From NCBI RefSeq assembly GCF_964204645.1, contig NC_134030.1, forward strand, positions 21,536,210 through 21,600,209: a stretch of 64,000 nucleotides of DNA, read 5' to 3'. The notes under the pieces are model-generated. The model was not told the DNA's origin. It searched no databases and saw only the letters and a program-made list of their open reading frames with translations. Below are positions 24,575 to 57,347 of the stretch, one piece after another. The number at the start of each line of letters is the position of its first letter. Position 1 is the stretch's first letter. Source of the stretch: Tubulanus polymorphus. Taxonomy: Eukaryota > Animalia > Nemertea. The translations under genes and the position numbers were made by a program.

Positions 24575-25290
24575 TCGTCCCTTGGACCGGTTCCGTAATC
24601 GAGACTTAAGTTCCGTTTTTGTTCTTAAATCTTAAGGCTGATCTTGAGTTATTAGATTGAACTAAGATGAAATAAGTATATAGAACTAAGTTGGTCTTAA
24701 ACCGGTATTAAGTCTATGAACGGCTGATAACGGCTCCTGGGCCCGGTTGCGCAGTTCTGACTTAAGTCCAAAAGTGGTCTTAAATCGTTAGACTGGTCTT
24801 AAGTGGTTAGATTGGTTATAGAACTGAGTTGGTCTTAGACTGGTCTTAAGTCTAAGCCATGACTATGCAACTGGCCCCTGGGGCTGGTTGCGCAGCCAGG
24901 GACCAGTTGCGCAGTCGTGACTTAAGTCCAAAAGTGGTCTTAAATCTTATGACTGGTCTTAACTTGTTAGATCGGCTATAGAACTAAGTTGGTCTTGGAT
25001 TGGTCTTAAGTCTAAGCCATGACTATGAAAACGGCTTTAGCATATTTTGCACACAAAAAAATGCTAAAAATCATTTGAATTTTGAAACTAAGTGTTGATG
25101 AAGTTTAAATGAAAGCGCTTGTCACTTCTGTTCTATTAACGTGTCCTCTGGGGCCAGTTCCATAGTCAAGACTTAGGACCAAAAGTGGTCTTAAACCTTA
25201 AGACTGATCTTAAGTTGTAAGATTCGCTATAGAACTAAGTTTGTCTTAGACCGGTCTTAAGTCTAAGCCATGACTATGGAACCGGCCCCT
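24575..25290. mobile_element. Cluster of short MITEs (GGGGCCAGTTGC...GACTATGCAACTGGCCCC family)
   Basis: Several copies with GGTCTTAAG subrepeats. Related, amplified sequence lies at 26940-27200, 35690-36280 and 52840-52985. Confidence 0.7.
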
Positions 25291-25786
25291 GGTGCTTGAA
25301 TGACACAGGGGATTTATCTCTACATTTTTGTAATGGTTTGACGAAAATCACGACGTCTATCATGGTCGAAATTTACTAAAAAAAAAACTGCCACTACGCA
25401 CTAATAAAAAGTGCTGAAAACTTTGGTTGTGGTTTCGTGAAATGTAATGGTAATTTTTGCGACGAAATTGCGTCACGCATCATTTGAAATCTACAGTCGA
25501 AACGGCCAGTTGGGTTCGGTGTATCATGAAACTCGTTTCTAGAAACGGTGTTTCTTGTTTCTTGAAACTTGTCCGTTTCATGTTTATCTCGTGTGGCTTT
25601 TCGGGAATAATCGATAATTAATCATGCATTTAATATTTATGAATTGATGAGATTAAATTGATGAACTTGTTTTTTGCATATTTTACAAAATGTATGTTTT
25701 ATATTGTATTACTTAAACGTGTATTTAACGCCCTCTATTAGTGCTTTTTGTTACGAATCTTGTCAAGTGTGCAATAAGTCAAATAA

Positions 25787-26236: not shown

Positions 26237-28201
26237 TAGACATCAGGAACGGATCCAAGGATAAGGTTCGAGGCCTTTAGATACTTTCTATGTCCTTTTT
26301 GATCGTTGTAAAACAATGACTGCGTCACGTTTGAAAATCTGTGTATGAGCTGCGAGATGCGATGTATTTTTTCGCATTTCCAAATACAGTAAAAGTCTTT
26401 TTAAAACAGCATTTTCTAAAGAAATGCCATTGTTAAGAACCAATGAAAAATATGGCACGATGATTACGTATTTGGCAGGGTGTAATAAAGAATGGTATTA
26501 TTTCTATTGAATTTTCTATTGAGTTAGATTGGCTGGCTGGCTGACTGGCTGGCTGGCTGGCTGATTAACAGTAGTGTTAAAAAGGATGGCCGCATTATAC
26601 CAAACATTGATTGTGTAAAACATGTCCTACCAGATTATGCAATGATTCCATATATGATAAGGCGGTGAATATTTATTACTTCATTCCAGAAAAGGCAACT
26701 CAAAAGGTTTATGAGGGTCTTGTACGAAGGTCCTCGATACCTCCCTCCCGACCCCTGGATCCGTGCCTGCAAACAACGCGTGTTTTTTGTTGTTGATTTG
26801 TTTATATGAACATTTGTTACGCTGTCAGCGTCGCTTTTCAATCGTGTGTTTTTTTATTTTGATCTGTCTCAAATTCTGAAATTCGGTTTTTCGGAAATGG
26901 CCAAAAGCGGCCGAACGTGCTAAAACTCGGAAGGGAGGGGGTCTGTTCCGCAGTCATGGCTGAAGTCACGAAGTGGTCTTGAATCTGAAGACTAGTCTTA
27001 AGTTTTTACATTAGCTTTAGAACTAAGATGTCTCTGTCTGATCTTAAGTCTAAGTCATAAGTGTAATGAGTTTAGACTGGTCTTAAGTTGTTAGATAGGT
27101 TATAGAACCAAAATGAGCTTTAACTGGTCTTAAGCTGTTAGATTGGTTATGGAATCAAATGAGCTTAGACTGTTTTTACGTTGTTAGACCGGTCTTAAAA
27201 CAAAGCCTTGATTGTGTCACTAACATCCTGCCTTTTCTTATTTTAAACTCCACCATAAAGTCACTTTTAACCGAAAAGTATTGATTTATTGATTGCGTGT
27301 TGTTTATGTTGTATTTTGTTGCTGTCTGGTTTTTTGTAGTATTGAAAATATGAATATTAATTATAGTGAAAAATAAAGGCAGAAGTTTTAATCGTAAGTG
27401 ATAAATTCTGTGTTCTTGGTTTTTCGCTTTGAACAGTTGTGAACATTTGGGGCTAATTTGGCGTCGGTTGACAGGCTGGAGGTCACAGTTAATGGAAGAC
27501 CTGTAGTTTGCGCTTTTTCATGATTTAACAAACTCTGCTTTGCCCCAGAATGCCATTTTGGTCACCGCGGCTATATTCACAAGACACATTTTTACAAACG
27601 CACAGAACAACTACTCGGTGTTCTTCTAATAGTTAATGGTTAACATGCACGACTTGCAAGCAGGGTTGGTTGAGCTTGGGTCAGGGTTATTAAAAGCAGC
27701 CGTTGGCGGTAGGGGGCTCGAATCCATGGTCGTGACATAAAAATTTAGAGAATGAAAACGTAACAAAATATATATACATCAACTATTTACAATACTATAT
27801 ATACTATTGGAGGGATCTGTATACATCTAAGCCGGTCTTAATGAATTTAGCTAATTGGACCGTTGGGTTTTTCAGAATATCAAGGTTATTAAAGGTATTC
27901 AAATTCAAATAGTTTTTGCGGGGTTCGTTAAGTATTTAAGGGTGCTAATATACGTAATATAGCGCTCCTAGCGTATATTTATAATACTAAGTAGTTCAGG
28001 TAACGAGTGTCCCATTGAAATAGATTATTTGATGAAATAGATAATTTGATTTTCGTTATCGTCATTGCTTTGAAGTGATGTGTTTAGATCAGAAAACATT
28101 AAGTCACCAATGCATGTTTGTGTTCGCTACAAACAGGTTTTATCGATTCTACATGAAAAGTTTCCACATTCTGATGAAAGTCACATTGATTGACAACTGT
28201 T

Positions 28202-31200
28202 TCAGCGAGTTCTCAAAACCCGTTTATTTCTAGCACGAATAGATTTAACATCAATAGTGAGGATGGTGTAAAGAAGTGGATTCAGTGACGAGTTGATCGG
28301 TAGGAAAAGTACCGCCAACCAAGCCGCCACTTGGTTCGGTATTTCTACTCGCAATACAGCGCAAAACTGAACGATGATTATCGGTAACCAGCAAAATAAA
28401 TTACACAGATTTATCACTAAACTCCTACGTGCCAGAATCAATTCGGTAGGATCAGCTCTACCCGAGCCGGACCTGCTTCCAGATACGAGTCTATACATCT
28501 GTGCATACGTCATCATTATTGTAGCAAGTACGACCGAGTTAAACGCGGCAAATATAGCGAATGAGTATTGCCAGGCGTGGACATTGATGGATAGTAAATT
28601 CATAGGTAAACAAACGCCAGTTGTGCCGTAAAAGTTATTTCCGAAATAAGTAGATGACGATAGCGGTAGCATTGAAATGATGCTTAAAATGATCCAACAT
28701 ATGCAACAAATACCGGATACAGATTTCAAAGATATAATTGGGCTTGCAGAAAATGGATTGACGATATTCGAGTATCTTTGACGGGTTAGAATGAGCAGAA
28801 AAGTCAAAGATCCCTCGCACGAAAGAGTCACTATAATCCCGGCGAGTCGACACAATGAACTATCTGTCCAACTTTCAGAATTTAAGAAATAAACACCTTT
28901 ATAGACGTAATCGGCTCCTGCGATCAGAAACAGATAAATCGACATCAGGAAATCACAGGAGGCAATATTAATGATGAGGATATCCGAAGATGTGTTACGT
29001 GATTCAGAGGTTGAAATTCGAAGTGCTTGAACGCGAATTAAAATGACAATTATGTTCGCAACAAAGCTGAATGAAGCGATCGCCCAAATGATTGCTCTAA
29101 GAACAGTGTTACCCATCAGGTCGGAACAAGATGAAAATTGGTCGGCTTTCGGGAGACACTGGTCAACATTCGGAACCATGCAACAAAATTTGTACGCGTC
29201 AGAAGCCAAAGAACTTAATAATGTAAGTCTGTCAAACACGGTTCTCACTACGGATATGACTTTCGAATTTTTGGTTAGATCCAGATTTCTAAGTTTCGTT
29301 AATCCAGAAAATGCGTCTGGTAAAATGTAATTGATTTTGTTATTGCTAATGTTTAACGACTTTAAAGCGGATAAACCATTGAACACATTTCCACCGAGTA
29401 ATGACAAAGAAAGTCCGTGAAGATCGAGATCGCTTAATGACTTTAAACCTTGAAAACTGTCTTCTTCTAAATAACTCACTGGATTCCCAAAAAGCAAGAG
29501 CATTTTCAAACTATACAAACCGGCGAATGTATTCGCGATCAATGATATTATGCGGTTATATGTAAGATCTAATGTATGTAGATTATGTAGGTTTAAGAAC
29601 GAGTTTGGAACAATATAAGACAAATTGTTACGTGAAATATTGAGGAGATGTAGATAGAGGTAAGAAGAAAACGTGGACTCATTGAATACAACTCGGTTTT
29701 CTGATAAAATCAGAACTCGAGTTGATGCCGAGAAAAGATCAGTAATTTCTACTAAACCAGCATCATCGCAATCAATTAGATGACCTTGACATTTACAATA
29801 CTCAGGACACGTGATGTTACAGTAAGACTCGTCATCAGTGGTACGTTTACAATTTATAACACCATCACAAACTTCAGATTGAGGTATACATCGGTTTTCC
29901 TGGCCACATTTGAACATGCCGGGACATGATAAAGTCTCGCAGTTTCGCTCGTCTTCTGAATTAGGACAATCTGATCGACCATCGCACACCTGTCCCATTG
30001 GTATACAGTAAGATGCTGGACATTTTACAGTACCAGCTGGACATTTGAAATCAGTACAACCTTGTATATGTTCGAGCCTTCTACATACCGGGTAACCAAT
30101 CGGCATCCTTTCTAAAATACATCTATGACCTCTAGCATAACAATGAGGAGAATCGAAAGAACATCTTTGTTCATCAGATTTCTTACATAAGTTTGTGAAG
30201 TTAGTCGTGCAGTAGTTCTCATCATTACAGTGAACTGTAGGATTCACTATAACATTCGATGTTAAAAGTTCATCTTCTTGGAGGCTTCCGCTACAATCTA
30301 CAACACCATCCCGATTCAATAGAGAACTGATACATTCACCGCTGTTACATAGAAACCCGTTGCAAAGTTGCGGACCACACTCCCGCTCGTCGGAGCCGTC
30401 CTTACAGTTAACGATTCCATCACATCGGTACGATCTATCCACACATTGACCACTAGTACAGCGGAATTGTTGGGGCAAACACGGGGGATGAAAACAGGAG
30501 TTCTCATCAGAACCATCCAAACAATCCTTAATGAAATCACAGAATCCACTTATTGATATAACTCGTCCATCTGAACAGTGGAACTGACTGTGTAAGTTTG
30601 AACCCGAACAATCGAGTTCATCTTCACCGTGTTGACAGTCGTTTCTGGTATCACATACGCGATGGTCGCTGATACATCTTTGATCATTACATTTAAACTG
30701 CCACGATTTACAACCGCTTATAGAAGCCAACTCTTCACCAGTTACATTATAGGAACATAGCACGGAATGAACGTTGTTTGTCCGATTATTCCACTGTTTT
30801 ATCGACCATCTCAACGACTCGATAAAAGTTATTCCATCCCTTGTCAAAACTGGTTCGATCACTTGAAACATTTTCCTAGCATCCATAGTCAGTATAGCGC
30901 CATATTGGTGTTTAAAACTGAACGCGTCAATTAATGCTTTTATTTCATTTTCCACGTGATTAGCTACAATGCCTATTTCAGCGTGAAGGTCACGACACAT
31001 TTTCGTAGCGCTTCGAATATCCAAACTTCGATTGTTGTTCCAATCTGTGAGCATTTGACAACATTTGCCGTCCACATTTTGCCAACCTCTTTTACAAGTC
31101 GAGTCATTGGTTGTATTGGAATTTAGAAAATTTTTATTTCCAGTTAGAAATACGATATCGTTATGAGTATCAGTTATTTCTAGGATAGTCGTTGTATTTT

Positions 31201-34200
31201 GATTTTCAACTGTCGAATTATCCACGCGTTCTGAATCGACGTCAATTCTATCCGATTCACAAATGAAAGTTGTTCGAGTCTCCTCGATTTGACACGGGAA
31301 TCGAACCCAGTTCGCTGATCCTCGTGGATTATTCAGTATCATCGCCGCACACAGCATATTGACGTCATTTATCGGTTGTTTTCGTAGAGGAGATATCAAT
31401 CCTGGAATAACTTCTGGTATCGTTTCGTTTATCATAGCAGGTTTAAACCACTCTGTGTAGCTCAATGGTTTGCCATCAGTCCACGTGTAATAACCATTAT
31501 TCTGTTAAGATAGAATTCATTTTCATTTATCGACTGCAAAAAATGGTTTCAGCATTTTTATTAACCACTTAATTAACCATTAACGATTCAAAAACTTAAC
31601 TACTATTAGCGTTAAAAACCCCACTCCATGGCAATGTCACGCCGGGAGTGACAGAGAAAACCTGAAATATGGTCGTGGTCACTTTACAGGTGACTAGCCT
31701 ACTGACCTAATTTTCCGTTAGATGGCGAACTAGTCGAGTTTAGTATTTTCTACATTTGACCATTCAACTACTGTTAAAAGTTTAGGGCATTCAAATCTTT
31801 TGTCTGAAGTCAAGTTAAATCAAATAGTCAGTTACAGTACTTTATATTTTATTATCCTTTTCAATATTGTTTGCATTAATTCTGTTTGGTAATTTATATC
31901 AATTTAGAGTCTTTCGATTTGAATTTATTGTACATTTTACAATCTTCTGCATTAATTAATTCCACAATTAATCACATTTATCATGAATCTTTTGGTTTCG
32001 AATCCGCGTAATATTTGTTCATTTTTCTTTTCTCTCACTATTTCATGTAGAAGTTACCTTGAGTTTTAGCCCGATCATCATTATAAGCGCCTCCTGGGTA
32101 TATCCCTTTCTAAGCAGATTCGTGGCGAATAACCTTTTGACAGAAATCATTTCATCTTGTGAGTTGATACTGAGAAGATGTCCTCCGTATTTCTGTCTAC
32201 AGTAACTTGCAGCATTCTCCCAATTCAGACGTTCATCTCTGATGTATTTGACGCAGGAAATTCCCGAATCTAGAAATCCTGATTTACAGCTGATATCATC
32301 AAACTTTTTTTTTGTTAACTTTTCTAAATTGTATTGTATTTGAAATTTGGGAACGCGACCTCTTATCTCAAAATACAAATCATTGTCGATCAAACTATGG
32401 AATACACTTCCACGTTTAGCATTAGTTCTGCATAATTTTTTTTGATGGAAGGTTCCGCTTATCCGTTGCTTTAAAAGAACTGGGTCTTTGTCCGATAGAG
32501 ATGATTTAGTGCACGGTGTGATCTGAATAAATTTGATTACGAATCTGTAATATTGAAATCGATTATTTTCCATTGGGTTTTCAAAGCTATAATATAAAGA
32601 TGTCAAACTCTCCGATCCAAATCCCGGATAGTTCGGTGATTGTAAGATTCCACATTCATCCCTATCCGGGAAAAACGAAAAACCAAATGAATATGTTGTA
32701 CGCTTTTTCTCTACTTGGCATTTGCGACGCAGTTTAACTATCAATTCTCTTTGCCAGAATTCATATTTGTAGAACAATTTCAAAGTGTTTAATACTAAAC
32801 TGTTATTGAGAAACTGATTAGATAAACTCATTTGCCTATCACATGTTCTACTCGTGTATCGCGCAGGAAAACATGCGTCAATTTGATATTCATATTCTGA
32901 TAATATATTAATGTTTTCTAAAGGAAGGCGCCGGTTTTCGGGTGTAATCACGAGACAGTGCGACGTCATTTTGATCTGATTTTCTTCTTCCTGTAAAACA
33001 TACCCGTCGCAGTCAGTAGGATTGAATCTGAGAGAACGACTTGATTTCGAACTGATGATTGGTGTTACTAGTTGTGGAATCCAATTATCCCAGTTATAAG
33101 CGTATCCTACTACAGTAACCGGTCCTCCTGATGTAATCAAACTGACGACGCTGCGACCGAACCACAGACCATCAGGACAATACGGACCATAGCGTCTAGC
33201 TGTAAAATTACCACCATCATATATATAAAATCCAGCTCTCTCGCACGTCTCTGATAAAACTGTTAGTTTGAAATTATCCTCATAGATATCAACTTTCCGT
33301 TTAAATTCGTATGTATTTATACGATACATTAATGTTGTCTTCTGTGACGTCGGGAACAGAAAGCGAGGATGTAAACCGTAACCGGAGCCAGATATCTACA
33401 AAATATGAAAAATTCATCAGAAAAAATATAAGTATTTTATCATTGAAAGAAATATTAACAGAATTATTTTCATAATTTTCAAATAGATTTTTTTCTAAAA
33501 TTTTCCCTTTTTCGCAATGTTAAAAATGATTTCAAAATTATTATTCAAAGATTTATTTCAATTTCCACTTTTGTTTTAGCAAGTGTTTTTGTCATATTTA
33601 TTTTTTCTATTACAATTCATTTTCTGTGCTTTATATCTAATTTAGATGAAGCCGAGTAGTTACTTTAACTTACCCTGGGTTTGCGGACTTGTACGTCTCC
33701 TATTGAAATAGATTTCACTTCAAATTCAATTTTTACATTCGATTGTAAAACACCTAGTCTTATTAAAACGCACAGTATGACGAGAAAGCCGTCAGATTTA
33801 ACACTCAGTGATTCCAGGTAGTTGTAACCGAGTAAAATATCAGTTCCTACAACGCGTAACCCTTCTAGTTTATATACACCAATGACGTCACCGGATGTGC
33901 TGAGATCACGTGTCCAGTTGAAGACGACGTACTGTAACACCTGCACTGTGATAGACCAGCAGTGTAAGTGTTTTGATCGAGTTATTACGTGTAAACTGTT
34001 GTCATCAGGAATGAGCACTCCTGACTCGTTATTAAAGATTCGAATCAACGGATTAGAGACGTTCCAATCAGATATTCTATACACCTGAACTGATAGTTGT
34101 GTGCTAACGCGTCGGCCTCGTAGCAAACTGATAATAGCTCTGTTAGTTTTAGTATAAAACGATGAAGGGGGATGTCCGGTTTGTTCTGATATAACAGCTA

Positions 34201-34876
34201 TAGGTTCACTGGTGTTCCATCCGTCGTAAATTTGAACAGTTGTCGCTGAATCAGCGCCAGGAGATAATCTGAAATGTATCTGTGTAAACGTCAAATTCAT
34301 AGCAAAACCATCCGGGATCCCGATCCATTCCAAATAAAATTTACATCGATTTAAAAAAATTACGAATTTGTATCCTGTTGAAGTTTGTAATTTGTTTATC
34401 TTGAAATCGTTTTTTCTGCAGTTGTGAATTAATTTCAAATTGTTTCGTTCATAACGATATATGATATAAACCCGACTACCCCGCGCACTATCGACGTTAC
34501 TTCTAAACATCAACGAGACCGAATCGTTGCGGCGGATTTCATGTTTTCCTTCACCGCAGAATCTGTTATCGGACTCACCGACGAGAAGGTAGTTATCACT
34601 ACAGAATATCGACGGCTCGATGTCGTAGTATAGTTTGATGTTGAAAGTTCCCGGTAAAGAGCTGTTGACGAGCCAACGACATTCAACACCGCGCGTAAAC
34701 GACGGGTAATTCGGTGAAACGATGTAACCGGACGTAGAATCGACGGGGTACCAAGTGTTGTTACAAGACGAACTGACCGTCACAGAGTCAGACAGATCAG
34801 CGTGTGCGATGTTAACTCGCCAGACGATCAGCGACGCTATAAACAGCGCTCTCAGTCGATCCATACCGAACAGCAT
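28202..34876 (-). CDS. GRL101-like (LGR/relaxin-receptor-related) GPCR, copy A, ~1946 aa: signal peptide, CUB-like domains, C-type lectin, >=6 LDLa, LRR, 7TM
   Basis: Three exons joined in phase 0: 34876-33674 (AGG|gtaagt), 33395-32058 (AAG|gtaact), 31501-28202. CUB motif SGYIVSPNYP..C.W..C.DNYL..RFCG. A C-type lectin domain (LNWENAASYC..GGHLLSINS..IGL|..WTDG..SYTEW) is split by intron 2. LDLa repeats (C.DGSDE), LxxLxLxxN LRRs, the LGR hinge FCC..C.P..DQFSSCSDL and TM7 LPINSSLNPLLYT follow. Confidence 0.9.
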
Positions 34877-37199
34877 CAACACGACAGAATGAACCGAATC
34901 ATTCAAACTTTAGTTCGGATTTCATTTCGTCGATTAACAACCGAACACAAATTACAGTTCGTCCAATCAGAAAATTCGCTGCGAATTCTTTGAAATAGAT
35001 ATTTTTCGTCGCTGCTGCAATTATTTTGAAACCGATTCCAGTTTTGCATATTTGAACTTTTTGCAGATCAGTTTCTCAATTAGTGACAAATATATATTTC
35101 TAAATTTCATGTTACTTGCTAGCAGTGAAAGATCAAAGGCGTCAATTTATTCAACTAAGCTGTTTAAGTTGGAATTCAGTCCAAGAAACATTTACTAGAG
35201 CTACATTGATGACGTCATGCGTCATGGATTTTCTGTAGTTAGTTCAGACTTTTGAGCTAAAGTGTTGAGATTCAAAGTCAAAATGGATGTATTTCCAGTA
35301 ATATTTGAGTTTCGGAACAAATCCTAACAAACTGACAGATTTGGTCTGGTATTTCCACTTGGGGTCTTGCTAATGCAGGCGTGTGCGACAATAGAAATAA
35401 ATTCTGATGTTGGTGAAGAAGAATCCATTTTGCAGCCCAGTCATTTCACGTACCACCGGATTTTGGAATAAGCTTGGGATTATAGGGATTGGAATAATGG
35501 ACCAAACAAATTTAGGCAGTTCAGATTTTTAGTGCCATTAGTCTTTTTGAAAAAAAAACTACAGTGGAACCTCCTTGCAATTTTATTTAGTCAGCCCAGA
35601 ACTTTGAGTTATTTCGATTATCAAAATTGATATATTTTCAATAATATTTGAGTTTTGCGACCGAACGTGCTAAAACTCGGAAGGGAGGGGGTCTGTTCCG
35701 CAGTCATGACTGAAGTCACGAAGTGGTCTTGAATCTGAAGACTAGTCTTAAGTTTTTACATTTGCTTTAGAACTAAGATGTCTCTGTCTGATCTTAAGTC
35801 TAAGTGATAAGTGTAATGAGTTTAGACTGGTCTTAAGTTGTTAGATTGGTTATAGAACCGAAATGAGTTTAAATAAATTGGTCTTAAGTTGTTAGAGAAC
35901 TAACATGAGCTTAGTCTGGGCATAAGTTGTTAGATTGGTTTTTAACCAAAATGAGCTTTAACTGGTCTTAAGCTGTTAGATTGGATTTGGAATCAAATGA
36001 GCTTAGACTGGTCTTAAGTTGTTAGATTGGTTTTAAACCAAAATGAGCTTAAATAGACTGGTCATAAGTTGTTAGATTGGTTTTAAACCAAAATGATTTT
36101 ATCTTGACTGATCTTCTGTTGATAGATTGGTTATAGAACCAAGTGATCTTAGACTCTGGTCTTGTTAGATTGGTTTTAAACCAAAATGAGCTATAACTGG
36201 TCTTAGGTTGTTAGATTGGTTATGGAATCAAATGAGCTTAGACTGGTTTTATGTTGTTAGACCGGTCTTAAGTCAAAGCCTTGATTGTGTCACTAACCCC
36301 CTGCCTTTTCTTATTTTAAACTCCACCATAAAGTCACTTTTAACCGAAAAGTATTGATTTATTGATTGCGTGTTGTTTATGTTGTATTTTGTTGCTGTCT
36401 GGTTTTTTGTAGTATTGAAAATATGAATATTAATTATAGTGAAAAATAAAGGCAGAAGTTTTAATCGTAAGTGATAAAAGTGATAAATTCTGTGTTCTTG
36501 GTTTTTCGCTTTGAACAGTTGTGAACATTTGGGGCTTATTTGGCGTCGGTTGACAGGCTGGAGGTCACAGGTAATGGAAGACCTGTGGTTTGCGCTTTTT
36601 CATGATTTAACAAACTCTGCTTTGCCCCAGAATTCCATTTTGGTCACCGCGGCTATATTCACAAGACACATTTTTAAAAACGCACAGAACAACTACTCGG
36701 TGTTCTTCTAATAGTTAATGGTTAACATGCACGACTGGCAAGCAGGGTTGGTTGAGCTTGGGTCAGGGTTATTAAAAGCAGCCGTTGGCGGTAGGGGGCT
36801 CGAATCCATGGTCTTTAATATTCAAGCCATGACTATCATGCAACCAGACCTGATAAACGAGCTGTACTTTGGAGTTGTTTCTAGTTTCAGCGCTTGAAAA
36901 TGAAAGAGAGCATCAGAGCACATTTGTGACAAAAACATTTTTTGCTTTCATTAATTGATTTTTATAGATACAATAAAACGACAGTAGTGAATCATACAAC
37001 AATTGACAATCAATTAACATCAACTAGAATATGAGCTACATCGAAATTAGTTCTTTCACTTAACACCAGGGGTCAGTGTGATACAATATCTGGAAAGCAA
37101 ACAAACTCAATTTCACTTCCGTTCAAGAACCATCGTTTTTATAACGGTCTGCCATATCTTAGGCAATACAAAAATGATAGGTTAGAAAATTATGTTATT

Positions 37200-37400
37200 G
37201 AACTTATGGATGATGCTACTTGAATTTAGGATCGGGTGAACCAATTTCAAACCTTCATTTAGACAGACCTGATAGAATATGGCACCGCTTGTAATACTTT
37301 AGCTGACGAATCCCATTATCTCTTTGACTGTACCTTACTTGATGAACCCGTAAAAGCTATTTGGATTTGAATACCTTTGATACCCTTGATATTTTGAGAC
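37200..37400 (+). mobile_element. Degraded LINE ORF2 C-terminal zinc-knuckle fragment
   Basis: Translates TACNTLADESHYLFDCTLL, a DE.H..F.C motif also seen at 50518-50718. Confidence 0.45.
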
Positions 37401-38927
37401 TCGTCCAATTGGTAAATGCCGGTATGTTCGTTAGTTGATGAGAGACATGAATCGCGCGATTAAATTCATTGAAGCCATTAAAAATGTATACGTACCATGG
37501 ACATGGTTGGAGCGTAAATGAATTCGTTTTCGTATTCTTAACATTCGAGAACTCGAGAGTGTTTCAAATATTGGAAAATTCTCTGTAGAAAGTCGGCGTA
37601 GAATGTGTTGTTTAGCAACGCTATTTTCCTGCTTACGAGTCGTTTCGGGAACTAGCTCGATATTGATGACGAAGACTATGATATTTCAGTTGAAGACGAC
37701 TTTATTCTGCACTTGGTATGTGTCTGAATTTCATGCAGACTCCAAGGCTGACTTTGCGAGAATGCGATAATCTGACGATTCTTTTGAATCTTACAAGTTA
37801 TATATATAATATTGGTTACAAACAGAACAAACAGAGAGACATGTGACCGACTGGCAGGTGATAGGTGCCAAACTGGTCATTGTTTCATAGATTAGTGGAA
37901 AATCGGTCTGAGCAGAGGATTAATGAATTACTAAACAAACAAACGAGCAGATAGTTATAGCATGGATAAAATAATAAGACTTAAGATACAATAATATCAA
38001 AGTAGAAATGGCTTTGTTATATTCTCCCTTATTACGTTTGGAAAGTTTTCGTCCTCGAAAATAAAAGAAATATAATAAGTGGAATATGGAGACTGCTTGC
38101 TAAATATATGAAAGAGACTAGATATGACATTTAATTAATAAGAAAATTGAAGGAATTAAAATAAGCAAATAATTGTTTGTTACAGTTGCCTACTCTGAGA
38201 ACCTAATTCCATATTAATTTACAAGAAAAGTTTACGAACAATTGTCCACTTGAATCAGGAGAATTCGACATCAACAGTAATCAACAGTACCTCACTGAGT
38301 CGTTCTTTCACTATAATCAACATATTCAAATTAGATGCTACGATTACGATTACGATTACGATTACGATTACGATTTATTTACACTCCAACCATTTCCGTG
38401 GTATTTGGAGGAAAACTATTACACATCATACAAACAAATATTTACAAAACAACACTGAAGTGATAAAAATTTAGAGAATGAAAACGTAACAAAACATATA
38501 TACATCAACTATTTACAATACTATATATACTATTGGAGGGAGCTGTATACATCTAAGCCGGTCTTAATGAATTTAGCTAATTGGACCGTTGGGTTTTTCT
38601 GAATATCAAGGTTATTAAAGGTATTCAAATTCAAATAGTTTTTGCGGGGTTCGTTAAGTATTTAAGGGTGCTAATATACGTAATATAGCGCTCCTAGCGT
38701 ATATTTATAATACTAAGTAGTTCAGGTAACGAGTGTCCCATTGAAATAGATTATTTGATGAAATAGATAATTTGATTTTCGTTAACGTCATTGCTTTGAA
38801 GTGATGTGTTTAGATCAGAAAACATTAAGTCACCAGTGCGTGTTTGTGTTCGCTACAAACAGGTTTTATCGATTCTACATGAAAAGTTTCCACATTCTGA
38901 TGAAAGTCACATTGATTGACAACTGTT

Positions 38928-41900
38928 TCAGCGAGTTCTCCAAACCCGTTTATTTCTAGCACGAATAGATTTGACATCAATAGTGAGGATGGTGTAAAGA
39001 AGTGGATTCAGTGACGAGTTGATCGGTAGGAAAAGTACCGCCAACCAAGCCGCCACTTGGTTCGGTATTTCTACTCGCAATACAGCGCAAAACTGAACGA
39101 TGATTATCGGTAACCAGCAAAATAAATTACACAGATTTATCACTAAACTCCTACGTGCCAGAATCAATTCGGTAGGATCAGCTCTACCCGAGCCGGACCT
39201 GCTTCCAGATACGAGTCTATACATCTGTGCATACGTCATCATTATTGTAGCAAGTACGACCGAGTTAAACGCGGCAAATATAGCGAATGAGTATTGCCAG
39301 GCGTGGACATTGATGGTTAGTAAGTTCATAGGTAAACAAACGCCAGTTGTGCCGTAAAAGTTATTTCCGAAATAAGTAGATGACGATAGCGGTAGCATTG
39401 AAATGATGCTTAAAATGATCCAACATATGCAACAAATACCGGATACAGATTTCAAAGATATAATTGGGCTTGCAGAAAATGGATTGACGATATTCGAGTA
39501 TCTTTGACGGGTTAGAATGAGCAGAAAAGTTAAAGATCCCTCGCACGAAAGAGTCACTATAATCCCGGCGAGTCGACACAATGAACTATCTGTCCAACTT
39601 TCAGAATTTAAGAAATAAACACCTTTATAGACGTAATCGGCTCCTGCGATCAGAAACAGATAAATCGACATCAGGAAATCACAGGAGGCAATATTAATGA
39701 TGAGGATATCCGAGGATGTGTTACGTGATTCAGAGGTTGAAATTCGAAGTGCTTGAACGCGAATTAAAATGACAATTATGTTCGCAACAAAGCTGAATGA
39801 AGCGATCGCCCAAATGATTGCTCTAAGAACAGTGTTACCCATCAGGTCGGAACAAGATGAAAATTGGTCGGCTTTCGGGAGACACTGGTCAACATTCGGA
39901 ACCATGCAACAAAATTTGTACGCGTCAGAAGCCAAAGAACTTAATAATGTAAGTCTGTCAAACACGGTTCTCACTACGGATATGACTTTCGAATTTTTGG
40001 TTAGATCCAGATTTCTAAGTTTCGTTAATCCATAAAATGCGTCTGGTAAAATGTAATTGATTTTGTTATTGCTAATGTTTAACGACTTTAAAGCGGATAA
40101 ACCATTGAACACATTTCCACCGAGTAATGACAAAGAAAGTCCGTGAAGATCGAGATCGCTTAATGACTTTAAACCTTGAAAACTGTCTTCTTCTAAATAA
40201 CTCACTGGATTCCCAAAAAGCAAGAGCATTTTCAAACTATACAAACCGGCGAATGTATTCGCGATCAATGATATTATGCGGTTATACGTAAGATCTAATG
40301 TATGTAGATTATGTAGGTTTAAGAACGAGTTTGGAACAATATAAGACAAATTGTTACGTGAAATATTGAGGAGATGTAGATAGAGGTAAGAAGAAAACGT
40401 GGACTCATTGAATACAACTCGGTTTTCTGATAAAATCAGAACTCGAGTTGATGCCGAGAAAAGATCAGTAATTTCTACTAAACCAGTATCATCGCAATCA
40501 ATTAAATAACCTTGGCATTTACAATACTCAGGACACGTGATGTTACAGTAAGACTCGTCATCAGTGGTACGTTTACAATTTATAACACCATCACAAACTT
40601 CAGATTGAGGTATACATCGGTTTTCCTGGCCACATTTGAACATGCCGGGACATGATAAAGTCTCGCAGTTTTGCTCGTCTTCTGAATTAGGACAATCTGA
40701 TCGACCATCGCACACCTGTCCCATCGGTATACAGTAAGATGCTGGACATTTTACAGTACCAGCTGGACATTTGAAATCAGAACAACCTTGTATATGTTCG
40801 AGCCTTCTACATACCGGGTAACCAATCGGCATCCTTTCTAAAATACATCTATGACCTCTAGCATAACAATGAGGAGAATCGAAAGAACATCTTTGTTCAT
40901 CAGATTTCTTACATAAGTTTGTGAAGTTAGTCGTGCAGTAGTTCTCATCATTACAGTGAACTGTAGGATTCACTGTAACATTCGATGTTAAAAGTTCATC
41001 TTCTTGGAGGCTTCCGCTACAATCTACAACACCATCCCGATTCAATAGAGAACTGATACATTCACCGCTGTTACATAGAAACCCGTTGCAAAGTTGCGGA
41101 CCACACTCCCGCTCGTCGGAGCCGTCCTTACAGTTAACGATTCCATCACATCGGTACGATCTATCCACACATTGACCACTAGTACAGCGGAATTGTTGGG
41201 GCAAACACGGGGGATGAAAACAGGAGTTCTCATCAGAACCATCCAAACAATCCTTAATGAAATCACAGAATCCACTTATTGATATAACTCGTCCATCTGA
41301 ACAGTGGAACTGACTGTGTAAGTTTGAACCCGAACAATCGAGTTCGTCTTCACCGTGTTGACAGTCGTTTCTGGTATCACATACGCGATGGTTGCTGATA
41401 CATCTTTGATCATTACATTTAAACTGCCACGATTTACAACCGCTTATAGAAGCCAACACTTCATCAGTTACATTGTAGGAACATAGCACGGAATGAACGT
41501 TGTTTGTCTGATTATTCCACGGTTTTATCGACCATTTCAACGACTCGATAAAAGTTATTCCATCCCTTGTCAAAACTGGTTCGATCACTTGAAACATTTT
41601 CCTAGCATCCATAGTCAGTATAGCGCCATATTGGTGTTTAAAACTGAACGCGTCAATTAATGCTTTTATTTCATTTTCCACATGATTAGCTACAATGCCT
41701 ATTTCAGCGTGAAGGTCACGACACATTTTCGTAGCGCTTCGAATATCCAAACCTCGATTGTTGTTCCAATCTGTGAGCATTTGACAACATTTACCGTCCA
41801 CATTTTGCCAACCTCTTTTACAAGTCGAGTCATTGGTTGTATTGGAATTTAGAAAATTTTTATTTCCAGTTAGAAATACGATATCGTTATGAGTATCAGT

Positions 41901-44900
41901 TATTTCTAGGATAGTCGTTGTATTTTGATTTCTAATTGTCGAATTATCCACGCGTTCTGAATCGACGTCAATTCTATCCGATTCACAAATAAAAGTTGTT
42001 CGAGTCTCCTCGATTTGACACGGGAATCGAACCCAGTTCGCTGATCCTCGTGGATTATTCAGTATCATCGCCGTACACAGCATATTGACGTCATTTATCG
42101 GTTGTTTTCGTAGAGGAGATATCAATCCTTGAATAACTTCTGGTATCGTTTCGTTTATCATAGCAGGTTTAAACCACTCTGTGTAGCTCAATGGTTTGCC
42201 ATCAGTCCACGTGTAATAACCATTATTCTGTTAAGATAGAATTCATTTTCATTTATCGACTGCAAAAAATGGTTTCAGCATTTTTATTAACAACTTAATT
42301 AACCATTAACGATTCACTTTAACCACTAACAACTTAACTACTATTAGCGTTAAAAACCCCACTCCATGGCAATGTCACGCCGGGAGTGACAGAGAAAACC
42401 TGAAATATGGTCGTGGTCACTTTACAGGTGACTAGCCTACTGACCTAATTTTCCGTTAGATGGCGAACTAGTCGAGTTTAGTATTTTCTACATTTGACCA
42501 TTCAACTACTGTTAAAAGTTTAGGGCATTCAAATCTTTTGTCTGAAGTCAAGTTAAATCAAATAGTCAGTTACAGTACTTTATATTTTATTATCCTTTTC
42601 AATATTGTTTGCATTAATTCTGTTTGGTAATTTATATCAATTTAGAGTCTTTCGATTTGAATTTACTGTACATTTTACATTTCTTCTGCATTAATTAATT
42701 CCACAATTAATCACATTTATCATGAATCTTTTGGTTTCGAATCCGCGTAATATTTGTTCATTTTTCCTTTCTCTCACTATTTCATGTAGAAGTTACCTTG
42801 AATTTGAGCCCGATCATCATTATAAGCGCCTCCTGGGTATATCCCTTTCTAAGCAGTTTCGTGGCGAATAACCTTTTGACAGAAATCATTTCATCTTGTG
42901 AGTTGATACTGAGAAGATGTCCTCCGTATTTCTGTTGACAGTACATTTCAGCGTTCTCCCAATTCAGTCGTTCATCTTTGATGTATTTGACGCAGGAAAT
43001 TCCCGAATCTAGAAATCCTGATTTACAGCTGATTTCATCAAACTGGTTTTTTGTTAACTTTTCTAAATTGTATTGTATTTGAAATGTGGGAACACGACCT
43101 CTTATCTCAAAATACAATTCATTGTCGATCAAACTATGGAATATACTTCCACGTTTAGCATTAGTTCTGCATAATTTTTTTTGATGGAAGGTTTCGCTTT
43201 TATCGTGAAAGTCATATATCCGTTGCTTAAAAAAAACTGGGTCTTTGTCCGATAGAGATGATTTAGTGCACGGTGTGATCTGAATAAATTTGATTACGAA
43301 TCTGTAATATTGAAATCGATTATTTTCCATTGGGTTTTCAAAGCTATAATATAAAGATGTCGAACTCGACGATCCAAATCCCGGATAGTTCGGTGATTGT
43401 AAGATTCCACATTCGTCCCTATCCGGGAAAAACGAAAAACCAATTGAATATGTTGTACGCGTTTTTTCTACTTGGCATTTGCGACGCAGTTTAAGTAATT
43501 GTTCATAATACCAGAATTGATATTTGCCGAACAATTTCAAAGTGTTTAATACTAAACTGTTATTTAGAAACTGATTTGATAAACTCATTGCCCTGTCACA
43601 TTTACTATTCGAATATCGCGCAGGATAACATGCGCCAATTTGATATTCATATTCTGATGATATATAAATGTTTTCTAAAGGAAGGCGCCGGTTTTCAGGT
43701 GTAATCACCAGACAGTGTGACGTCATAGTGATATGGTTTTCTCCTTCCTGCAGAACATACCCGTCGCAGTCAGTAGGATTGAATTTGAGAGAAAGACTTG
43801 ATTTCGATTTCGAACCGATGATTGGTGTTACTAGTTCTGGAATCCAATTATCCCAGTTATAAGCGTATCCTACTACAGTAACCGGTCCTCCTGATGTAAT
43901 CAAACCGACGACGTTGCGACCGTATTTATAACTAGGACAATACGGACCATAGCGTCTAGCTGTAAAATTACCACCATCATATATATAAAATCCAGCTCTC
44001 TCGCACGTCTCTGATAAAACTGCCAGTTTGAATTTATCCTCAAAAATATCAACTTTCCGTTTAAATACTAAAGTATTTATACGATACGATAATGTTGTCT
44101 TCTTTGATGCCGGGAAGAGTTCGCTTGGAACCAAACTGGCACTTGAGCCAGATATCTACAAAATATGAAATTGATCATTTATCGAATAATCAAAAATTGT
44201 TTTGTTAGATACATTGTTTTACATTATTCTTAAATCATACACTTTATGTATTTATCCGACAAAATAATTGACGAATTTTCCTTGTTCTTAATTACACTTT
44301 TGAATACATTAAAGGGATGTTCCGTATCTTATATTTTCGCACAAGAAATTTAAAGGTTGTACAAAAAAGTTATTTTTTCAAAGATTTATTTAAACATCAG
44401 TTCTTGTACTAATATTCATGTTAAACAAAAATTAATATTTCTCATTTTAACAATTCTACACAAATATCTGTAAAGCAATAACTGAGAAATCATTTGTGGA
44501 CTTGCACGTCTTCTATTGAAAGTGGAAAATTCAACTTCAAACCCATTTTTATTTCTATGGTTCATTTTTACGTATAATTTAGCTGAACCTGAGTAGTTAT
44601 TTTACTTACCCTGTGTTTGTGAACTTGTACGTCTCCTGTGGATAAAGATTTCACTTCAAATTCAATTTTTAAATTCGATTGTAAATCACCTGGTCTTATT
44701 AAAACGCACAGTATGACGAGAAAGCCGTCAGATTTAACACTCAGTGATTCCAGGTAGTTGTAACCGAGTAAAATATCAGTTCCTACAACGCGTAACCCTT
44801 CTAGTTTATATACACCAATGACGTCACCGGATGTGCTGAGATCACGTGTCCAGTTGAAGACGACGTACTCTAACACCTGCACTGTGATAGACCAGCAGTG

Positions 44901-45818
44901 TAAGTGTTTTGATCGAGTTATTACGTGTAAACTGTTGTCATCAGGGATGAGCACTCCAGACTCGTTATTAGAGATTTGAATTAACGGATTAGAGACGTTC
45001 CAATCAGATATTCTATACACCTGAACGAATAGTTGTGATTTAAATGACAAACGGCGTTTTTTTGAGTAAATAATGGCTTTGTTAGTTTTAGTATAAAATG
45101 ATGAAGGTGGATGCCCGGTTTGTTCTGGTATAACAGCTATTGGTTCACTGGTGTTCCATCCGTCGTAAATTTGAACAGTTGCCGCTGATTCAGCGCCAGG
45201 AGATAATCTGAGGACTATCTGTGTAAATGTCAAATTCATAGCAAAACCATCCGGGATCCCGATCCATTCCAAATAAAATTGACAACGATCCAAATATATT
45301 GCGAATTTGTATCCTGTTGACGACGTTTGTAATTTGTTTAATATGGAATTGTATTCTCTGCAGTTGTGAGTGAATTTCAAATTGCTTCGTTCAAAACGAT
45401 ATATGATATAAACCCGACTACCCCGCGCACCATCGACGTTACTTCTAAACATCAACGAGACCGAATCGTTACGACGCATTTCATGTTTTCCTTCACCGCA
45501 GAATCTGTTATCGGACTCACCGACGAGAAGGTAGTTATCACTACAGAATATCGACGGCTCGATGTCGTAGTATAGTTTGATGTTGAAAGTTCCCGGTAAA
45601 GAGCTGTTGACGAACCAACGACATTCAACACCGCGCGTTAACGACGAGTAATTCGGTGAAACGATGTAACCGGACGTAGAATCGACGGGGTACCAAGTGT
45701 TGTTACAAGTCGAACTGACCGTCACAGAGTCAGACAGATCAGCGTGTGCGATGTTAACTTGCCAGACGATCAGCGACGCTATAAACAGCGCTCTCAGTCG
45801 ATCCATACCGAACAGCAT
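38928..45818 (-). CDS. GRL101-like GPCR, copy B, ~1955 aa
   Basis: Exons 45818-44610, 44155-42797 and 42227-38928, all open and in phase 0. Same architecture as copy A. Confidence 0.9.
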
Positions 45819-46669
45819 CAACACGACAGAATGAATCGAATCTTTCAAATTGACGTTCAGATTTCTTCACGTCGAATAGCCGGCGGAAACAGATTACAGT
45901 TCGTCCAATCAGAAAATTCGCTGAGAATTCTTTGAAATAGATATTTTTCGTCGCTGCTGCAATTATTTTGAAACCGATTCCAGTTTTGCATATTTGAATT
46001 TTTGCAGATCAGTTTCTCAATTAGTGACAAATATATATTTCTAAATTTCATGTTACTTGCTAGCAGTGAAAGATCAAAGGCGTCAATTTATTCAACTAAA
46101 CTGTTTAAGTTGGAATTCAGTCCAAGAAACATTTACTAGAACTACATTGATGATGCGTAATCGATTTTCTGTAGTTCAGACTTTTGAGCTAAAGTGTTGA
46201 GATTCAAAGTCAAAATGGATGTATTTTCAGCAATATTTGAGTTTCGGGACAAATCCTAACAAACTGACAGATTTGGTCTGGTATTTCCACTTGGGGTCTT
46301 GCTAATGCAGGCGTGTGCGACAATAAAAATAAATTCTGATGTTGGTGAAGAAGAATCCATTTTGCAGCCCAGTCATTTTTACGTACCACCGGATTTTGGA
46401 ATAAGCTTGGGATTATAGGGATTGGAATAATGGACCAAACAAATTTAGGCAGTTCAGATTTTTAGTGCCATTAGTCTTTTTGAAAAAAAAACTACAGTGG
46501 AACCTCCTTGCAATTTTATTTAGTCAGCCCAGAACTTTGAGTTATTTCGATTCTAAGTCAAAATTGATATATTTTCAATAATATTTGAGTTTTGGGTAAA
46601 TTGAAAAAAGACCCGATAAATAGGCAGTTCAAATTTGAGTTGCATGATCATTTTTGCCGTGGGGAAAAT

Positions 46670-47220: not shown

Positions 47221-49414
47221 GTTCTTCGTTGTATTCGGTGTGAAATTAAATAAATTTTCTTACGATGAAATTCTGATTTTGTTAAAATCCTTTAAATCAA
47301 GTTCTTTATATCCAAGTATAAATCCAAAAATCAGTCCGTCGTGGACTAGGATCGGTTTTAACTTAAACCCCGGGCTCCAGTTGCACAAGTCATCTTTAAA
47401 CTCATCTTTAATCCCGAGACTGGTTGTAAGATTTCTTGAAGATTTCTTGGTCTAGAATTTAAGCAACTTATGACTGTACACAACTGACTTCTGAGGTCAG
47501 TTCATGGCTTAGATTTAAGCTCAGACTAAAACCCTCTTAGTTGTATAGTCGACTGTGACTGTCGTGACTGTGGCGACTGGCCCTGAATTACTCGCTATGA
47601 GCCAATTGAGTTAACAAAAGGGCCAACAATAAAACCAGCCTAGGTTTATAGTTAGCTCCAGTTCGAACGAACCTTTGAGCAACTGAGCCCGGTTTTAAGT
47701 CGGCTCCAAAGTTTCTGTGCAACACGTCAGTTACTGGGCGTTGGTTTTGTAGTCAAATGAAAAATATCTAGAAACTTTGAATTACTATGATATTAGATAT
47801 ATGCAGGTAGATATGTATTTTGAAACGAGGAATGATGATTCAGAGGAATCGATCGGGTTTTAGATATCAGGATAGATGAGATGGTGGTTGTTTGAAGTTC
47901 TCTCTAATTAACTTCGAAGCCTTCGGGGCTATATACGCATCGGAACGAGCAACTATCGAGCGGCGAAGTTGAACATATAATTTACAAGCCGAGCAAATGA
48001 CAAGAAGTTGAAAAGTTCATAGATCTTCAATACACGCATTTCGTATATCAACTACTGGTTTTGAAACTTACAGTACAAACCGTATCCTAGGTTACAGCTT
48101 CATTCTGGGATTCTCCGTTTGTCAAATGCGCAAAATGTTTTCAAAGTTTTCCGTCCGAAATACAATTTCGCTCCCGGATTCGCCATTGAAAATATTGATG
48201 TAAAAATCGGAAGCTTTTACAGAATTGCAGAAAGTTACGAACTGGGGTTACATGAATTAACAAATAAGATAGAAAGAAAAAGAATAAACGATCAAGAAAA
48301 CAATCTAAACAGTTTATTGGCGCTTTGAAAAAATAACATTGCTTATGTTGACGACAATAAATAATATAATATCGATTATACAATATTAAGGATCATAAAG
48401 TTTTTTTGGATATGAATATATCGATAGTTGAATTGAATTGACCGGCAACCAGTCTAGTTCCGATTTATTGATGACGTAATGCATACATTTTCGAAAAAGA
48501 TTTTTAAAAATTTATCAAAAATGAAATAAGAGTTAGGAAATATATTTCTAACGGTTTTAACGCGGTAAAAAAAAACAAAACCATACATTAATTGTAGATC
48601 TCCCGTCAGTACGTAGACGGGTTGCACTTCAGTTTTGGTTTTTTAATTCGTCATTATTGAATTACACGATTATTGATGAACAAGAAGATAAAAAGAAAAG
48701 AATGAACATAGAATTTCACACTGAGCTACAAAGGGAAAGAACTATTTACAGGTAGTCGGAATACATCATAAATGTTTATGTTGTATAAAGGTTGCATCAT
48801 TCCATTTCATTCATAATCACTGCCCTCATTTTAGTTCCAGGTGTTACCAACCGCACAGGGTTACAGTCATTTTTTTACCCGGAGTGGCAACCTATCAATG
48901 AATTATTATATGATATACATTTTGTTTGTACATAACTGTTAATTATTCTATATTAATGAAATAAACATTACATTACATCGCATTAGGCGGATCCGTGTTC
49001 CGAAAGTTCTCTGACATTGATATTAAATGATATTAATGACTAAACTAACCACAAAATTCAAATATTTATCGATTGCTGTTTCGGCGTCTGCCTGAAAGTA
49101 CTGTTATAGGTACGTACTCTTCTTATGAATGAAATCATTTTCTCTCAAACGCAAATAAGTTATATCTCTGTAAAACACTGCGCTTAACTCCATTCTGCTC
49201 AAATTTCTGGATGCGCCCCGTGTATATTACAAAGAAAGAAAGAAAGATATCAATTCTCTGCGTTGAAGTTCTCTTTCATAGTACGTAGAAGTTTGCGCCA
49301 AATTTCCCTTTTAGATGCCATTTGTCCCGTCTTAAATTTTCGATTTAAATGAAGCCCACTTATTAAGCTTGTCGTTTATTTATTTGTGAGTTTTGTGTGT
49401 TTCTAATTCATTTT

Positions 49415-50142
49415 TGGATTTGTGAGTCTCTGTTTTGGAAAGACGACCTTGCAAATGTACATGCATTGAGACAACTCAAAGAAATAGCCTGGCGAAATTT
49501 TGAATGAAGCCATTTCGAAAGCCGGTAGGTACCCTTTAGAAAAGAATCTCCAAGCGACCTCCTCACCAATGTTATTGCCTGATAAAATGTGGAAAATTGT
49601 GTATATTTGAATGAATTGAAAATGAACTACAAACACCAGACATTAGACATTTTATCAGCACACTTTCAAAAACTGATCGTCCACACTTCACATGTGTTCA
49701 GTGCTTCACCTGAGACATTTTTAATTGAAAATGAACTACAAACACCAGACATTAGACATTTTATCAGCACACTTTCAAAAACTGATCGTCCACACTTCAC
49801 ATGTGTCCAGTGCTTCACCTGAGACATTTTTAATTGAAAATGAACTACAAACACCAGACATTAGACATTTTATCAGCACACTTTCAAAAACTGATCATCC
49901 ACACTTCACATGTGTCCAGTGCTTCACCTGAGACATTTTTAATTGAAAATGAACTACAAACACCAGACATTAGACATTTTATCAGCACACTTTCAAAAAC
50001 TGATCGTCCACACTTCACATGTGTTCAGTGCTTCACCTGAGACATTTCTAATTGAAAATGAACTACAAACACCAGACATTAGACATTTTATCAGCACACT
50101 TTCAAAAACTGATCGTCCACACTTCACATATGGTCAGTGCTT
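49415..50142 (+). mobile_element. Repeat-carrying dispersed element: ~200-bp flank plus ~5 x 109-bp units
   Basis: Same flank and unit as 16930-18000. Confidence 0.85.
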
Positions 50143-50517
50143 CTGCCAGAAATTACTTTAATCAATGCGCATTTTTTATCGATGCATTTTCCATTTAAAT
50201 ACATATATAGAAAATTAATCATGCTTGGAAAACACTGCGCTCACATTTCTGGATCCATCCCTGGTTACTATTTCATATACAATTTGAATTATCAATTTGT
50301 TAAAAACCACCGCCACAAATCTATCAATTTTATGATTTACATATCTCGAGAATTAATAAATACCGTATCTTAACCGATGATAATGAATGCTATAATCGAT
50401 ATAGGTTTAGTTAAGGGACAACATATGATTATCGTGGTATTTACAAACTTTGAATTTTGAATTTTTTGAATTGTGTTTTTTTCTATTTGATTTTATTTGT
50501 CTTGAGTAAATCATTTA

Positions 50518-56998: not shown

Positions 56999-57116
<118 letters not shown>

Positions 57117-57347
57117 AGGTTACTACTACCATTTATTCCGAAGCTAATGAAATCGGAATTTCACAAATTCGATCTCGATACGGTCGTTCGGTCGTACGCA
57201 ATTAAATCCAGTTTTCAAATATACAAAAATAGGGTCCAGAAATATATAACGTCGTGCATTAGACAATTTGAAATAAAGAATCATTTGTTGAAAAAAAGAA
57301 TCAATTTCGAAAGGCACCTTGATGTCGGAAAGTATTGACTTTATTTT

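Follow-up and report, generated by a model that had tools for sequence, protein, structure and literature searches.

Two tandem GRL101-like receptor genes of Tubulanus polymorphus differ in old patches of a mosaic ectodomain

Two giant G-protein-coupled receptor (GPCR) genes, here called A and B, lie side by side in a 64,000-nucleotide (nt) stretch of DNA from Tubulanus polymorphus (contig NC_134030.1, positions 21,536,210 to 21,600,209; hereafter the window). Their signalling halves are nearly identical, and their outer halves differ in dense patches. How did one pair of neighbouring genes come to combine the two? The preliminary description of this locus proposed diversifying selection on ligand-contacting loops. 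The explanation that we favour, with moderate confidence, is that A and B are recent tandem duplicates within a family of 100 or more copies, patched by gene conversion, and that the family forms a variable sensor repertoire.

The two three-exon genes were assembled from six long minus-strand frames and encode proteins of 1946 (A) and 1955 (B) amino acids (aa), with the layout given in Table 1. All introns are GT-AG and phase 0, and neither gene contains an internal stop. Splicing was deduced from the sequence, and the exon 2/3 junction is also crossed by a public protein model, XP_074658304 (P0001). Both frames are intact over 5.8 kb, as had been described, and both genes within the span first given for them (32058..45818) are real; that span omits exon 3 of gene A.

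Replacements are concentrated at the outer end of the proteins. Exon 3 differs between A and B at 19/1099 residues, with 2/296 in the block running from the end of the hinge through the seven-transmembrane domain (7TM) to the tail, whereas exon 1 differs at 44/400 and exon 2 at 62/445 (jointly 106/845; exons 1-2 vs exon 3, Fisher p=8e-23). The share of differing residues depends on the domain: it is 19-21% for CUB2, the CUB domain of exon 2 and the domain after it, falls to 6-9% for CUB1, domain 3 and the final CUB-like domain and to 5% for the lectin regions, and is ~1% in the core. Nucleotide divergence is 6.6% in exon 1, 8.0% in exon 2 and 1.0% in exon 3; the 3' flank diverges by 2.6% and 1.3%, and the 5' flank by 3.8%. 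In intron 2 the two copies differ at 5 of 556 aligned bases (0.9%) and by 2 indels, while intron 1 (278 vs 454 nt) is mostly unalignable, with 61% identity and 39% divergence under forced alignment. These values bear out much of what was first noticed: some 20 differing residues in exon 3 with nearly none in the 7TM, a nearly identical intron 2, dense replacement blocks with in-frame indels in exons 1-2 (all five of the patches quoted were found, and the six indel blocks are every one in frame) and cysteines that are largely kept (21/21 in exons 1-2). The supposed enrichment for aromatic or charged residues was not found (aromatic, 32/212 vs 214/1690, p=0.27; charged, 52/212 vs 360/1690, p=0.24; joint p=0.07).

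In none of 5000 permutations did the replacements of exons 1-2 cluster as tightly as they do in the genes, and silent changes accompany them. Codon differences that are silent only are about five times denser in exons 1-2 than in exon 3 (43/739 vs 13/1080, p=4e-8), and silent changes have 4.1 replacements within ten codons of them, where 2.3 are expected (0/5000 permutations). Simple positive selection after duplication was rejected because silent sites are elevated too. Segmentation with a two-state hidden Markov model yielded five high-divergence tracts comprising 362 codons, in which silent divergence (dS) is 0.23 (0.18-0.23 across estimates) and replacement divergence (dN) is 0.14, and left 1582 codons with a dS of 0.016. 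The core and the low tracts of exons 1-2 share a silent divergence of 1.2-1.5%, and exon 1 contains an identical run of 177 nt (99.9th percentile, 160). Because dS is ~0.2 in the patches, intron 1 cannot be aligned and patch dN/dS lies at 0.62-0.88, the patches are, as judged from these alignments, old sequence within a recombinant mosaic and not a burst of amino-acid change.

The dN/dS values are pairwise, A against B, with transition weights of 1-4, and the patch value varies with that weighting. Diversifying selection is not borne out by them: patch dN/dS, which under that proposal should not have been well below 1, is the 0.62-0.88 just given, and silent changes climb alongside replacements. 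The low tracts of exons 1-2 have a dN/dS of 1.5-2.0 (24 replacements, 5 silent; p=0.2-0.5), and the young CUB/lectin tracts together one of 1.17-1.54, which does not exceed 1 significantly; in the LDLa-LRR-7TM core it is 0.30-0.41 (p=0.02-0.07). The ratio of replacements to silent changes is 35:9 in the young CUB/lectin tracts vs 9:9 in the core (p=0.03, one of several tests). The CUB/lectin half outside the patches thus carries no sign of purifying selection, and the core is under purifying selection.

Selection may nevertheless have acted on the patches, because selection that resists conversion is also expected to leave islands of divergence in which silent sites differ too (PMC3924837; this and the other cited papers are represented here by excerpts). 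The closest version of the earlier selection idea is that A and B are old duplicates, homogenised by A-B conversion except where selection keeps different ligand specificities, as in peaks of the opsin/RH type. Such a history predicts silent-inclusive peaks (PMC3924837) and agrees with the presence of several patches separated by identical runs. It also agrees with the position of two patches, which fall on the odd-numbered CUB loops L7 and L9 by profile position; the loop numbering is our own mapping, from CUB nomenclature plus PMC8051872. According to the latter, several CUB proteins bind ligand through their odd-numbered loops; these loops are in any case the most variable, and ADAMTS13 does not use them.

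The duplication itself weighs against that history. Self-BLAST delimits two units that lie head-to-tail and meet at 35657/35658 with 1 nt of microhomology and no gap; over its first 194 nt, unit B matches the start of unit A at 97% identity. Identity of 97-99% extends up to the breakpoints and to either side of the 1.65-kb stretch present only in unit B, where conversion should be weakest, and the background silent divergence is uniform at ~1.5%. Old duplicates are for these reasons an unlikely source of the pattern. A young duplication is favoured because the background is uniform at 1-1.5% up to the breakpoints, and A and B probably arose by a tandem duplication not long ago, inside a large sensor family, and were patched by gene conversion. 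Conversion, which the preliminary description had tentatively placed in the 3' half, is a plausible part of this history, but its restriction to that half is unlikely because near-identical tracts also occur inside exons 1-2 and in both flanks. Intron 1 of gene B holds at ~44483-44540 a degenerate copy of the 3' end of exon 1 (44/58 nt matching) that resembles the exon end of A; it is possibly a relic of earlier recombination.

Could A and B instead be two haplotypes of one locus that the assembly joined in tandem? The ~1% background divergence is allele-like, and read depth was measured on copy A. In run X1, however, which may be the assembly's own sample, contig depth, a rough measure, is 43-53 over the parts shared by A and B against 23-31 for single-copy sequence and 24.7 for an exact contig of A intron 1. 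Such depths agree with three or more copies per diploid genome and not with two alleles, and so the depth check proposed at the outset argues against two haplotypes of one locus. The outermost 5'-flank bin in run X4 (described below) stands at 1.7x, and the junction is clean and gapless. An assembly artefact is, on this evidence, scarcely credible.

A related possibility is that a real duplication placed two long-diverged alleles of one locus in tandem, the alleles having been held as a balanced polymorphism of the kind found at loci for immunity or self-recognition. The background divergence between A and B is near the 0.3-1.1% that X1 contigs show against single-copy parts of the window. In sample S2, moreover, the 5'-flank contig depth is about single-copy (X2, 34.5 vs 29.5-37.4; X3, 17.2 vs 19.8-21.1), which hints that copy number differs between animals. 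The unalignable intron 1 and the tracts with a dS of 0.2 would, however, require a very old polymorphism or the prior import of paralogous sequence, and such import leads back to conversion from the family. We consider captured alleles improbable.

The favoured history, a young duplicate patched by conversion, needs a donor for the dS 0.2 tracts and the foreign intron 1, and a large family would supply one; the donors would be other paralogues. Its size was estimated from run X4, raw genomic reads from a separate sample with the same species label (1934 million letters, 85% likeness). Depth was measured over copy A, counts only copies within ~15% of A, whether intact or not, and is expressed relative to single-copy depth, which four bins put at 9.3; the TMEM169 gene served as the single-copy reference. 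Among 14 mainly coding bins, six stand at 110-172x single-copy, six at 36-63x, one at 22x and one at 7x; intron 2 stands at 5x, and the 5' flank at 5.5x and, in the outermost bin, 1.7x. Runs X1-X3 gave a depth profile of the same shape. The family thus probably comprises 100 or more copies, and the high exon depth backs the original suggestion of a receptor family of sensory or immune type. As the amplification is confined to exons, it reflects a gene family; a transposon as the source of the depth was rejected, since introns and flanks are not amplified. The near-constancy first ascribed to the signalling half holds for A vs B but not throughout the family, in which depth falls at the second lectin-like region (22x) and at the LRR/hinge (36x).

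Reads from the family place A and B close together. At 28/36 of the listed positions at which the majority of reads depart from A, B has A's letter (23/25 in exon 3 and 5/10 in exons 1-2), and A and B are therefore sisters within the family. Family reads contain indels at two A/B patches, one of them tract 3 (33141-33173), which suggests that further variants may exist at the same two spots; that the B patches are the commonest family variants was rejected, because the read indels do not give B's letters. In exon 1 of gene A, contigs of X1-X3 end loosely with alternative sequences at 34630-34644 and at 34786. These ends lie in CUB1 and just past the signal peptide, at places where the two genes agree, and so family variation reaches beyond the A/B patches.

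The databases hold little of this family. The best protein match is P0001 from T. polymorphus (83% identity over the hinge and 7TM; the next is <40%), a partial model without exons 1-2 and three blocks of exon 3; if the source of the window is T. polymorphus, we infer that P0001 is a distant paralogue on another chromosome. Annotated A or B were absent from the protein searches capable of listing them, which gave P0001 as the sole family record, whereas the protein of the neighbouring TMEM169 gene is present in NCBI/UniRef. Word-based searches gave no match for exon 2 among proteins of 782-2230 aa or for exon 1 among proteins of 220-702 aa. With exon 1, phmmer found 54 proteins, all at <=39% identity and none below E=1e-30, and the 14 of these that were scanned are CUB proteins without 7TM matches. 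Repeat masking would be our guess at the cause of the missing annotation.

What kind of receptor do A and B encode? In Pfam, exon 1 of gene A matches CUB above the cut-off, exon 2 shows a weak C-type lectin start, and exon 3 matches Ldl_recept_a (6 stretches, E=2e-33), LRR_8 (3 stretches, E=9e-24) and, above the cut-off, 7tm_1 (rhodopsin-type 7TM, E=2.7e-22). A second lectin-like region (aa ~985-1108) was recognised by eye and by alignment with P0008 from Lineus, and has no Pfam match. The motif LPINSSLNPLLY in transmembrane helix (TM) 7 agrees with GRL101-like relatives, and the hinge before TM1 reads FSSCSDLM, the same as in the GRL101-like matches. With several LDLa N-terminal to the LRRs, the type C2 LGR architecture, A and B are GRL101-like LGRs. 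GRL101 orthologues in the strict sense have about twelve LDLa and are single copy, as against six LDLa and, probably, 100 or more copies here. In a 7TM tree of 21 rows, drawn without Lymnaea GRL101, the branch uniting A, B and P0001 is long, has full support and lacks resolved neighbours.

The acidic position of D/E-R-Y is Gln in A, B and P0001 and Asp or Glu in the other 18/21 rows; an acidic residue there is a common motif and no strict criterion for LGR membership. The replacing sequence in TM3 of gene A (aa ~1755) is TRQRY, common among the 21 rows only to P0001 (and B), and the Asp of TM6 is Asn in A, B, P0001 and three more rows. In some class A receptors a neutralised DRY acidic residue raises basal activity, which offers a lead.

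The CUB-like domains claimed earlier are backed from several sides. A custom profile, made from CUB proteins matched in this analysis, matches aa 38-129 (E=2e-12), 186-251 (1e-5), 417-476 (9e-4) and, weakly, 648-678 (0.04), with no match at aa 269-400 or 521-645, and searches of ESM Atlas with exon 1 and with exon 2 both led to CUB and CUB-lectin clusters. The AlphaFold model of exon 1, biased to the CUB fold by the CUB proteins in its alignment, consists of two beta-sandwiches (pLDDT ~80-90 in CUB1 and 63-87 in CUB2), with aa 269-401 not resolved; its top Foldseek matches are C1r/C1s, neuropilin, PCPE-1, MASP and cubilin. Domains 1 and 2 are predicted to have the CUB fold, with the CUB cysteines. 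The exon 2 model has a pLDDT of 29, and when the profiles of exons 1 and 2 were compared, an SPNYP motif was all that they shared.

Several results weigh against a conversion-patched sensor repertoire. The copy number comes from one raw-read run and a four-bin baseline, and A/B divergence is unrelated to family read depth over the 14 bins (rho 0.02). The family indels at the two patches lack B's letters, and a donor sequence was not found. No region has a pairwise dN/dS significantly above 1, and on the exon 1 model (aa 30-268) replacements are not commoner in loops than in strands (17/112 vs 16/127, p=0.58); loop enrichment was rejected. One-base indels occur in the reads at 31430 (589/1149) and 28961 (171/901), and many family copies could be pseudogenes. 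Finally, with Gln at the acidic DRY position, ordinary G-protein signalling may not be assured. Some of these results would suit neutral birth-and-death, in which a runaway, partly pseudogenised family is shuffled by conversion while its outer half evolves under relaxed constraint: ectodomain dN/dS is compatible with 1, neither loops nor residue classes are enriched, and one-base indels are frequent in the family reads. Such a history sits poorly with frames open over 5.8 kb, with indels all in frame, with the 21/21 kept cysteines, with purifying selection on the core (p=0.02-0.07) and with family conservation in exons and not in introns, and we regard it as very improbable.

How might a receptor repertoire of this kind work? 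We propose that a recent tandem duplication inside a large GRL101-like family yielded A and B, and that gene conversion from other family members placed older sequence into their CUB domains. Some 1100 residues of CUB and lectin domains would be displayed above an LDLa-LRR-hinge-7TM unit. This outer half would bind large external ligands (proteins, glycans), and the signal would pass via the LDLa-LRR region and hinge to the 7TM and then to a G protein. The family would then form a sensor repertoire at the cell surface, its members varying in the outer domains and having the signalling core in common. For its role we draw only on analogy with snails and starfish: contact chemosensation comes first, at somewhat short of an even chance, immune or non-self recognition would be a less probable role, and other recognition (gamete, cell identity) seems rather unlikely. 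A bolder version, which we hold to be doubtful, is an unannotated GPCR repertoire of >100 genes whose CUB/lectin arms are continually recombined for non-self or chemical recognition and whose copy number is polymorphic between individuals.

Table 1. Positions in the window of the receptor genes, high-divergence tracts and duplication units
Feature	Coordinates	Strand	Remarks
Gene A exon 1	33674-34876	-	hydrophobic N-terminus (putative signal peptide), CUB1 aa ~38-144, CUB2 aa ~153-268, third domain
Gene A intron 1	33396-33673	-	278 nt; middle unalignable to B intron 1; exact contig in run X1
Gene A exon 2	32058-33395	-	CUB-like aa ~405-520, further domain, weak CUB-like aa ~647-770, C-type lectin start
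Gene A intron 2	31502-32057	-	556 nt; 0.9% off B
Gene A exon 3	28202-31501	-	remaining lectin domain, second lectin-like region, six LDLa, LRRs, hinge, 7TM
Gene B exon 1	44610-45818	-	
Gene B intron 1	44156-44609	-	454 nt; contains degenerate ~58-nt copy of exon 1 3' end
Gene B exon 2	42797-44155	-	
Gene B intron 2	42228-42796	-	569 nt
Gene B exon 3	38928-42227	-	
High-divergence tract 1	34010-34453	-	A aa 142-289, mainly CUB2; holds SLLRGRRVSTQLS patch over CUB loop L9
High-divergence tract 2	33261-33757	-	A aa 374-446, across intron 1
High-divergence tract 3	33141-33173	-	A aa 476-486; PDGLWFGRSVVS patch directly past Cys of CUB loop L7
High-divergence tract 4	32703-33053	-	A aa 516-632; FPARY and FYKYE patches
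High-divergence tract 5	32196-32240	-	A aa 787-801, lectin domain start
Duplication unit A	26907-35657	.	gene A and both flanks; self-BLAST
Duplication unit B	35658-46594	.	gene B and both flanks; self-BLAST
Unit-B-only stretch	36814-38462	.	1.65 kb, in 3' flank; self-BLAST

The window also contains other genes and repeats. A homeobox gene (51112-52070, minus; Pfam Homeodomain), which we take to be of the Evx/even-skipped kind, has its last exon ~4.5 kb from the pair; on the other side lie the TMEM169 gene (23525-24472, plus; Pfam E=6e-52; exact protein in NCBI/UniRef) and an ALIX/PDCD6IP-like multi-exon gene (~1800-13100, minus; BRO1 and ALIX_LYPXL_bnd) with tandem-repeat arrays in its introns. 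A foldback-like element at 16137-20318 has inverted arms of 1.66 kb (96.6% identity) with a 109-bp tandem array in each, and relics of it lie at 49413-50162 and 55943-56339. A dispersed high-copy repeat with 46-47-bp subunits occurs at 24580-25296, 27065-27204, 35815-36261 and 52838-52986; its depth is ~170-350x at the two places measured, and one copy lies near the start of each duplication unit. At 57347-59672 a pair of short elements with inverted ends adjoins a perfect (GCT)37 (57002-57113). The window scan found no tRNA genes.

Animals that have neither antibodies nor vertebrate-type odorant receptors cope with a wide range of ligands by means of large variable receptor families. GRL101-like expansions are separate in snails and tunicate relatives, their roles are divided between chemosensation and immunity, and they have no known ligand. 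A pair that shares a near-identical signalling core and differs in mapped patches makes the site of expression and the effect of swapping patches testable, and the locus suggests that annotation can miss entire receptor repertoires. The nemertean literature seen in excerpt is sparse on this point: a GPCR survey omitted LGRs (PMC8557429), and the excerpt of the ribbon-worm genome paper does not mention GPCR (PMC11251423). Our literature search, likewise of main-text excerpts, returned no description of a CUB-lectin GRL101-like family or of a large variable receptor family in nemerteans.

The nearest known systems share parts of this design. GRL101 of Lymnaea stagnalis and other type C2 LGRs have the same multiple LDLa, LRRs, hinge and relaxin-receptor-like 7TM (PMC8286064, PMC6267866). 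GRL101 itself carries twelve LDLa and occurs as a single copy in ambulacrarians, and an insulin-like ligand for it is a hypothesis only (PMC8286064); A and B differ in their six LDLa (Pfam), ~1100 extra CUB-like and lectin residues, Gln in DRY and probable membership of a family of 100 or more copies. Fourteen LDLa GPCRs without LRRs are described in Ciona (PMC2396169). XP_064640791 (P0008) of Lineus longissimus aligns to A residues 768-1946, from lectin to 7TM, at 31%, and P0024 of Patiria miniata combines CUB, LDLa, LRR and 7TM, so that CUB-bearing LGRs are already in databases; both lack the order of a CUB array followed by a lectin and fall outside the A/B group in the 7TM tree. The SudRes2 cluster of Biomphalaria sudanica likewise consists of tandem CTL-LDLa-LRR-7TM receptors, where CTL denotes the C-type lectin, mostly missed by automatic annotation and with copy differences between haplotypes. 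It has twelve genes, and no CUB array is described in the excerpt, against at least three CUB-like domains and ~ten times more copies here. That cluster lies in a schistosome-resistance region, although the validated variants sit in a neighbouring gene (PMC12297450). Apple snails (Ampullariidae) show a lineage-specific tandem burst of similar size (29-132 GRL101 genes), and expression, in tentacles and palps, is known there; the passage describes neither CUB domains nor mosaic ectodomains (PMC6573481). GRL101-like genes are also expressed in tentacles of Charonia (PMC13403566) and crown-of-thorns starfish (PMC6267866). For the islands of divergence within near-identical copies, the parallels are the human red/green opsins, RHD/RHCE and the protocadherin clusters (PMC3924837); unlike these, A and B imply a donor pool of ~100 copies and look young, not old. 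GRL101 expansions in snails are thus known, and what sets this one apart is the unusual CUB-lectin arm, the large and apparently unannotated copy number and the recombinant ectodomains.

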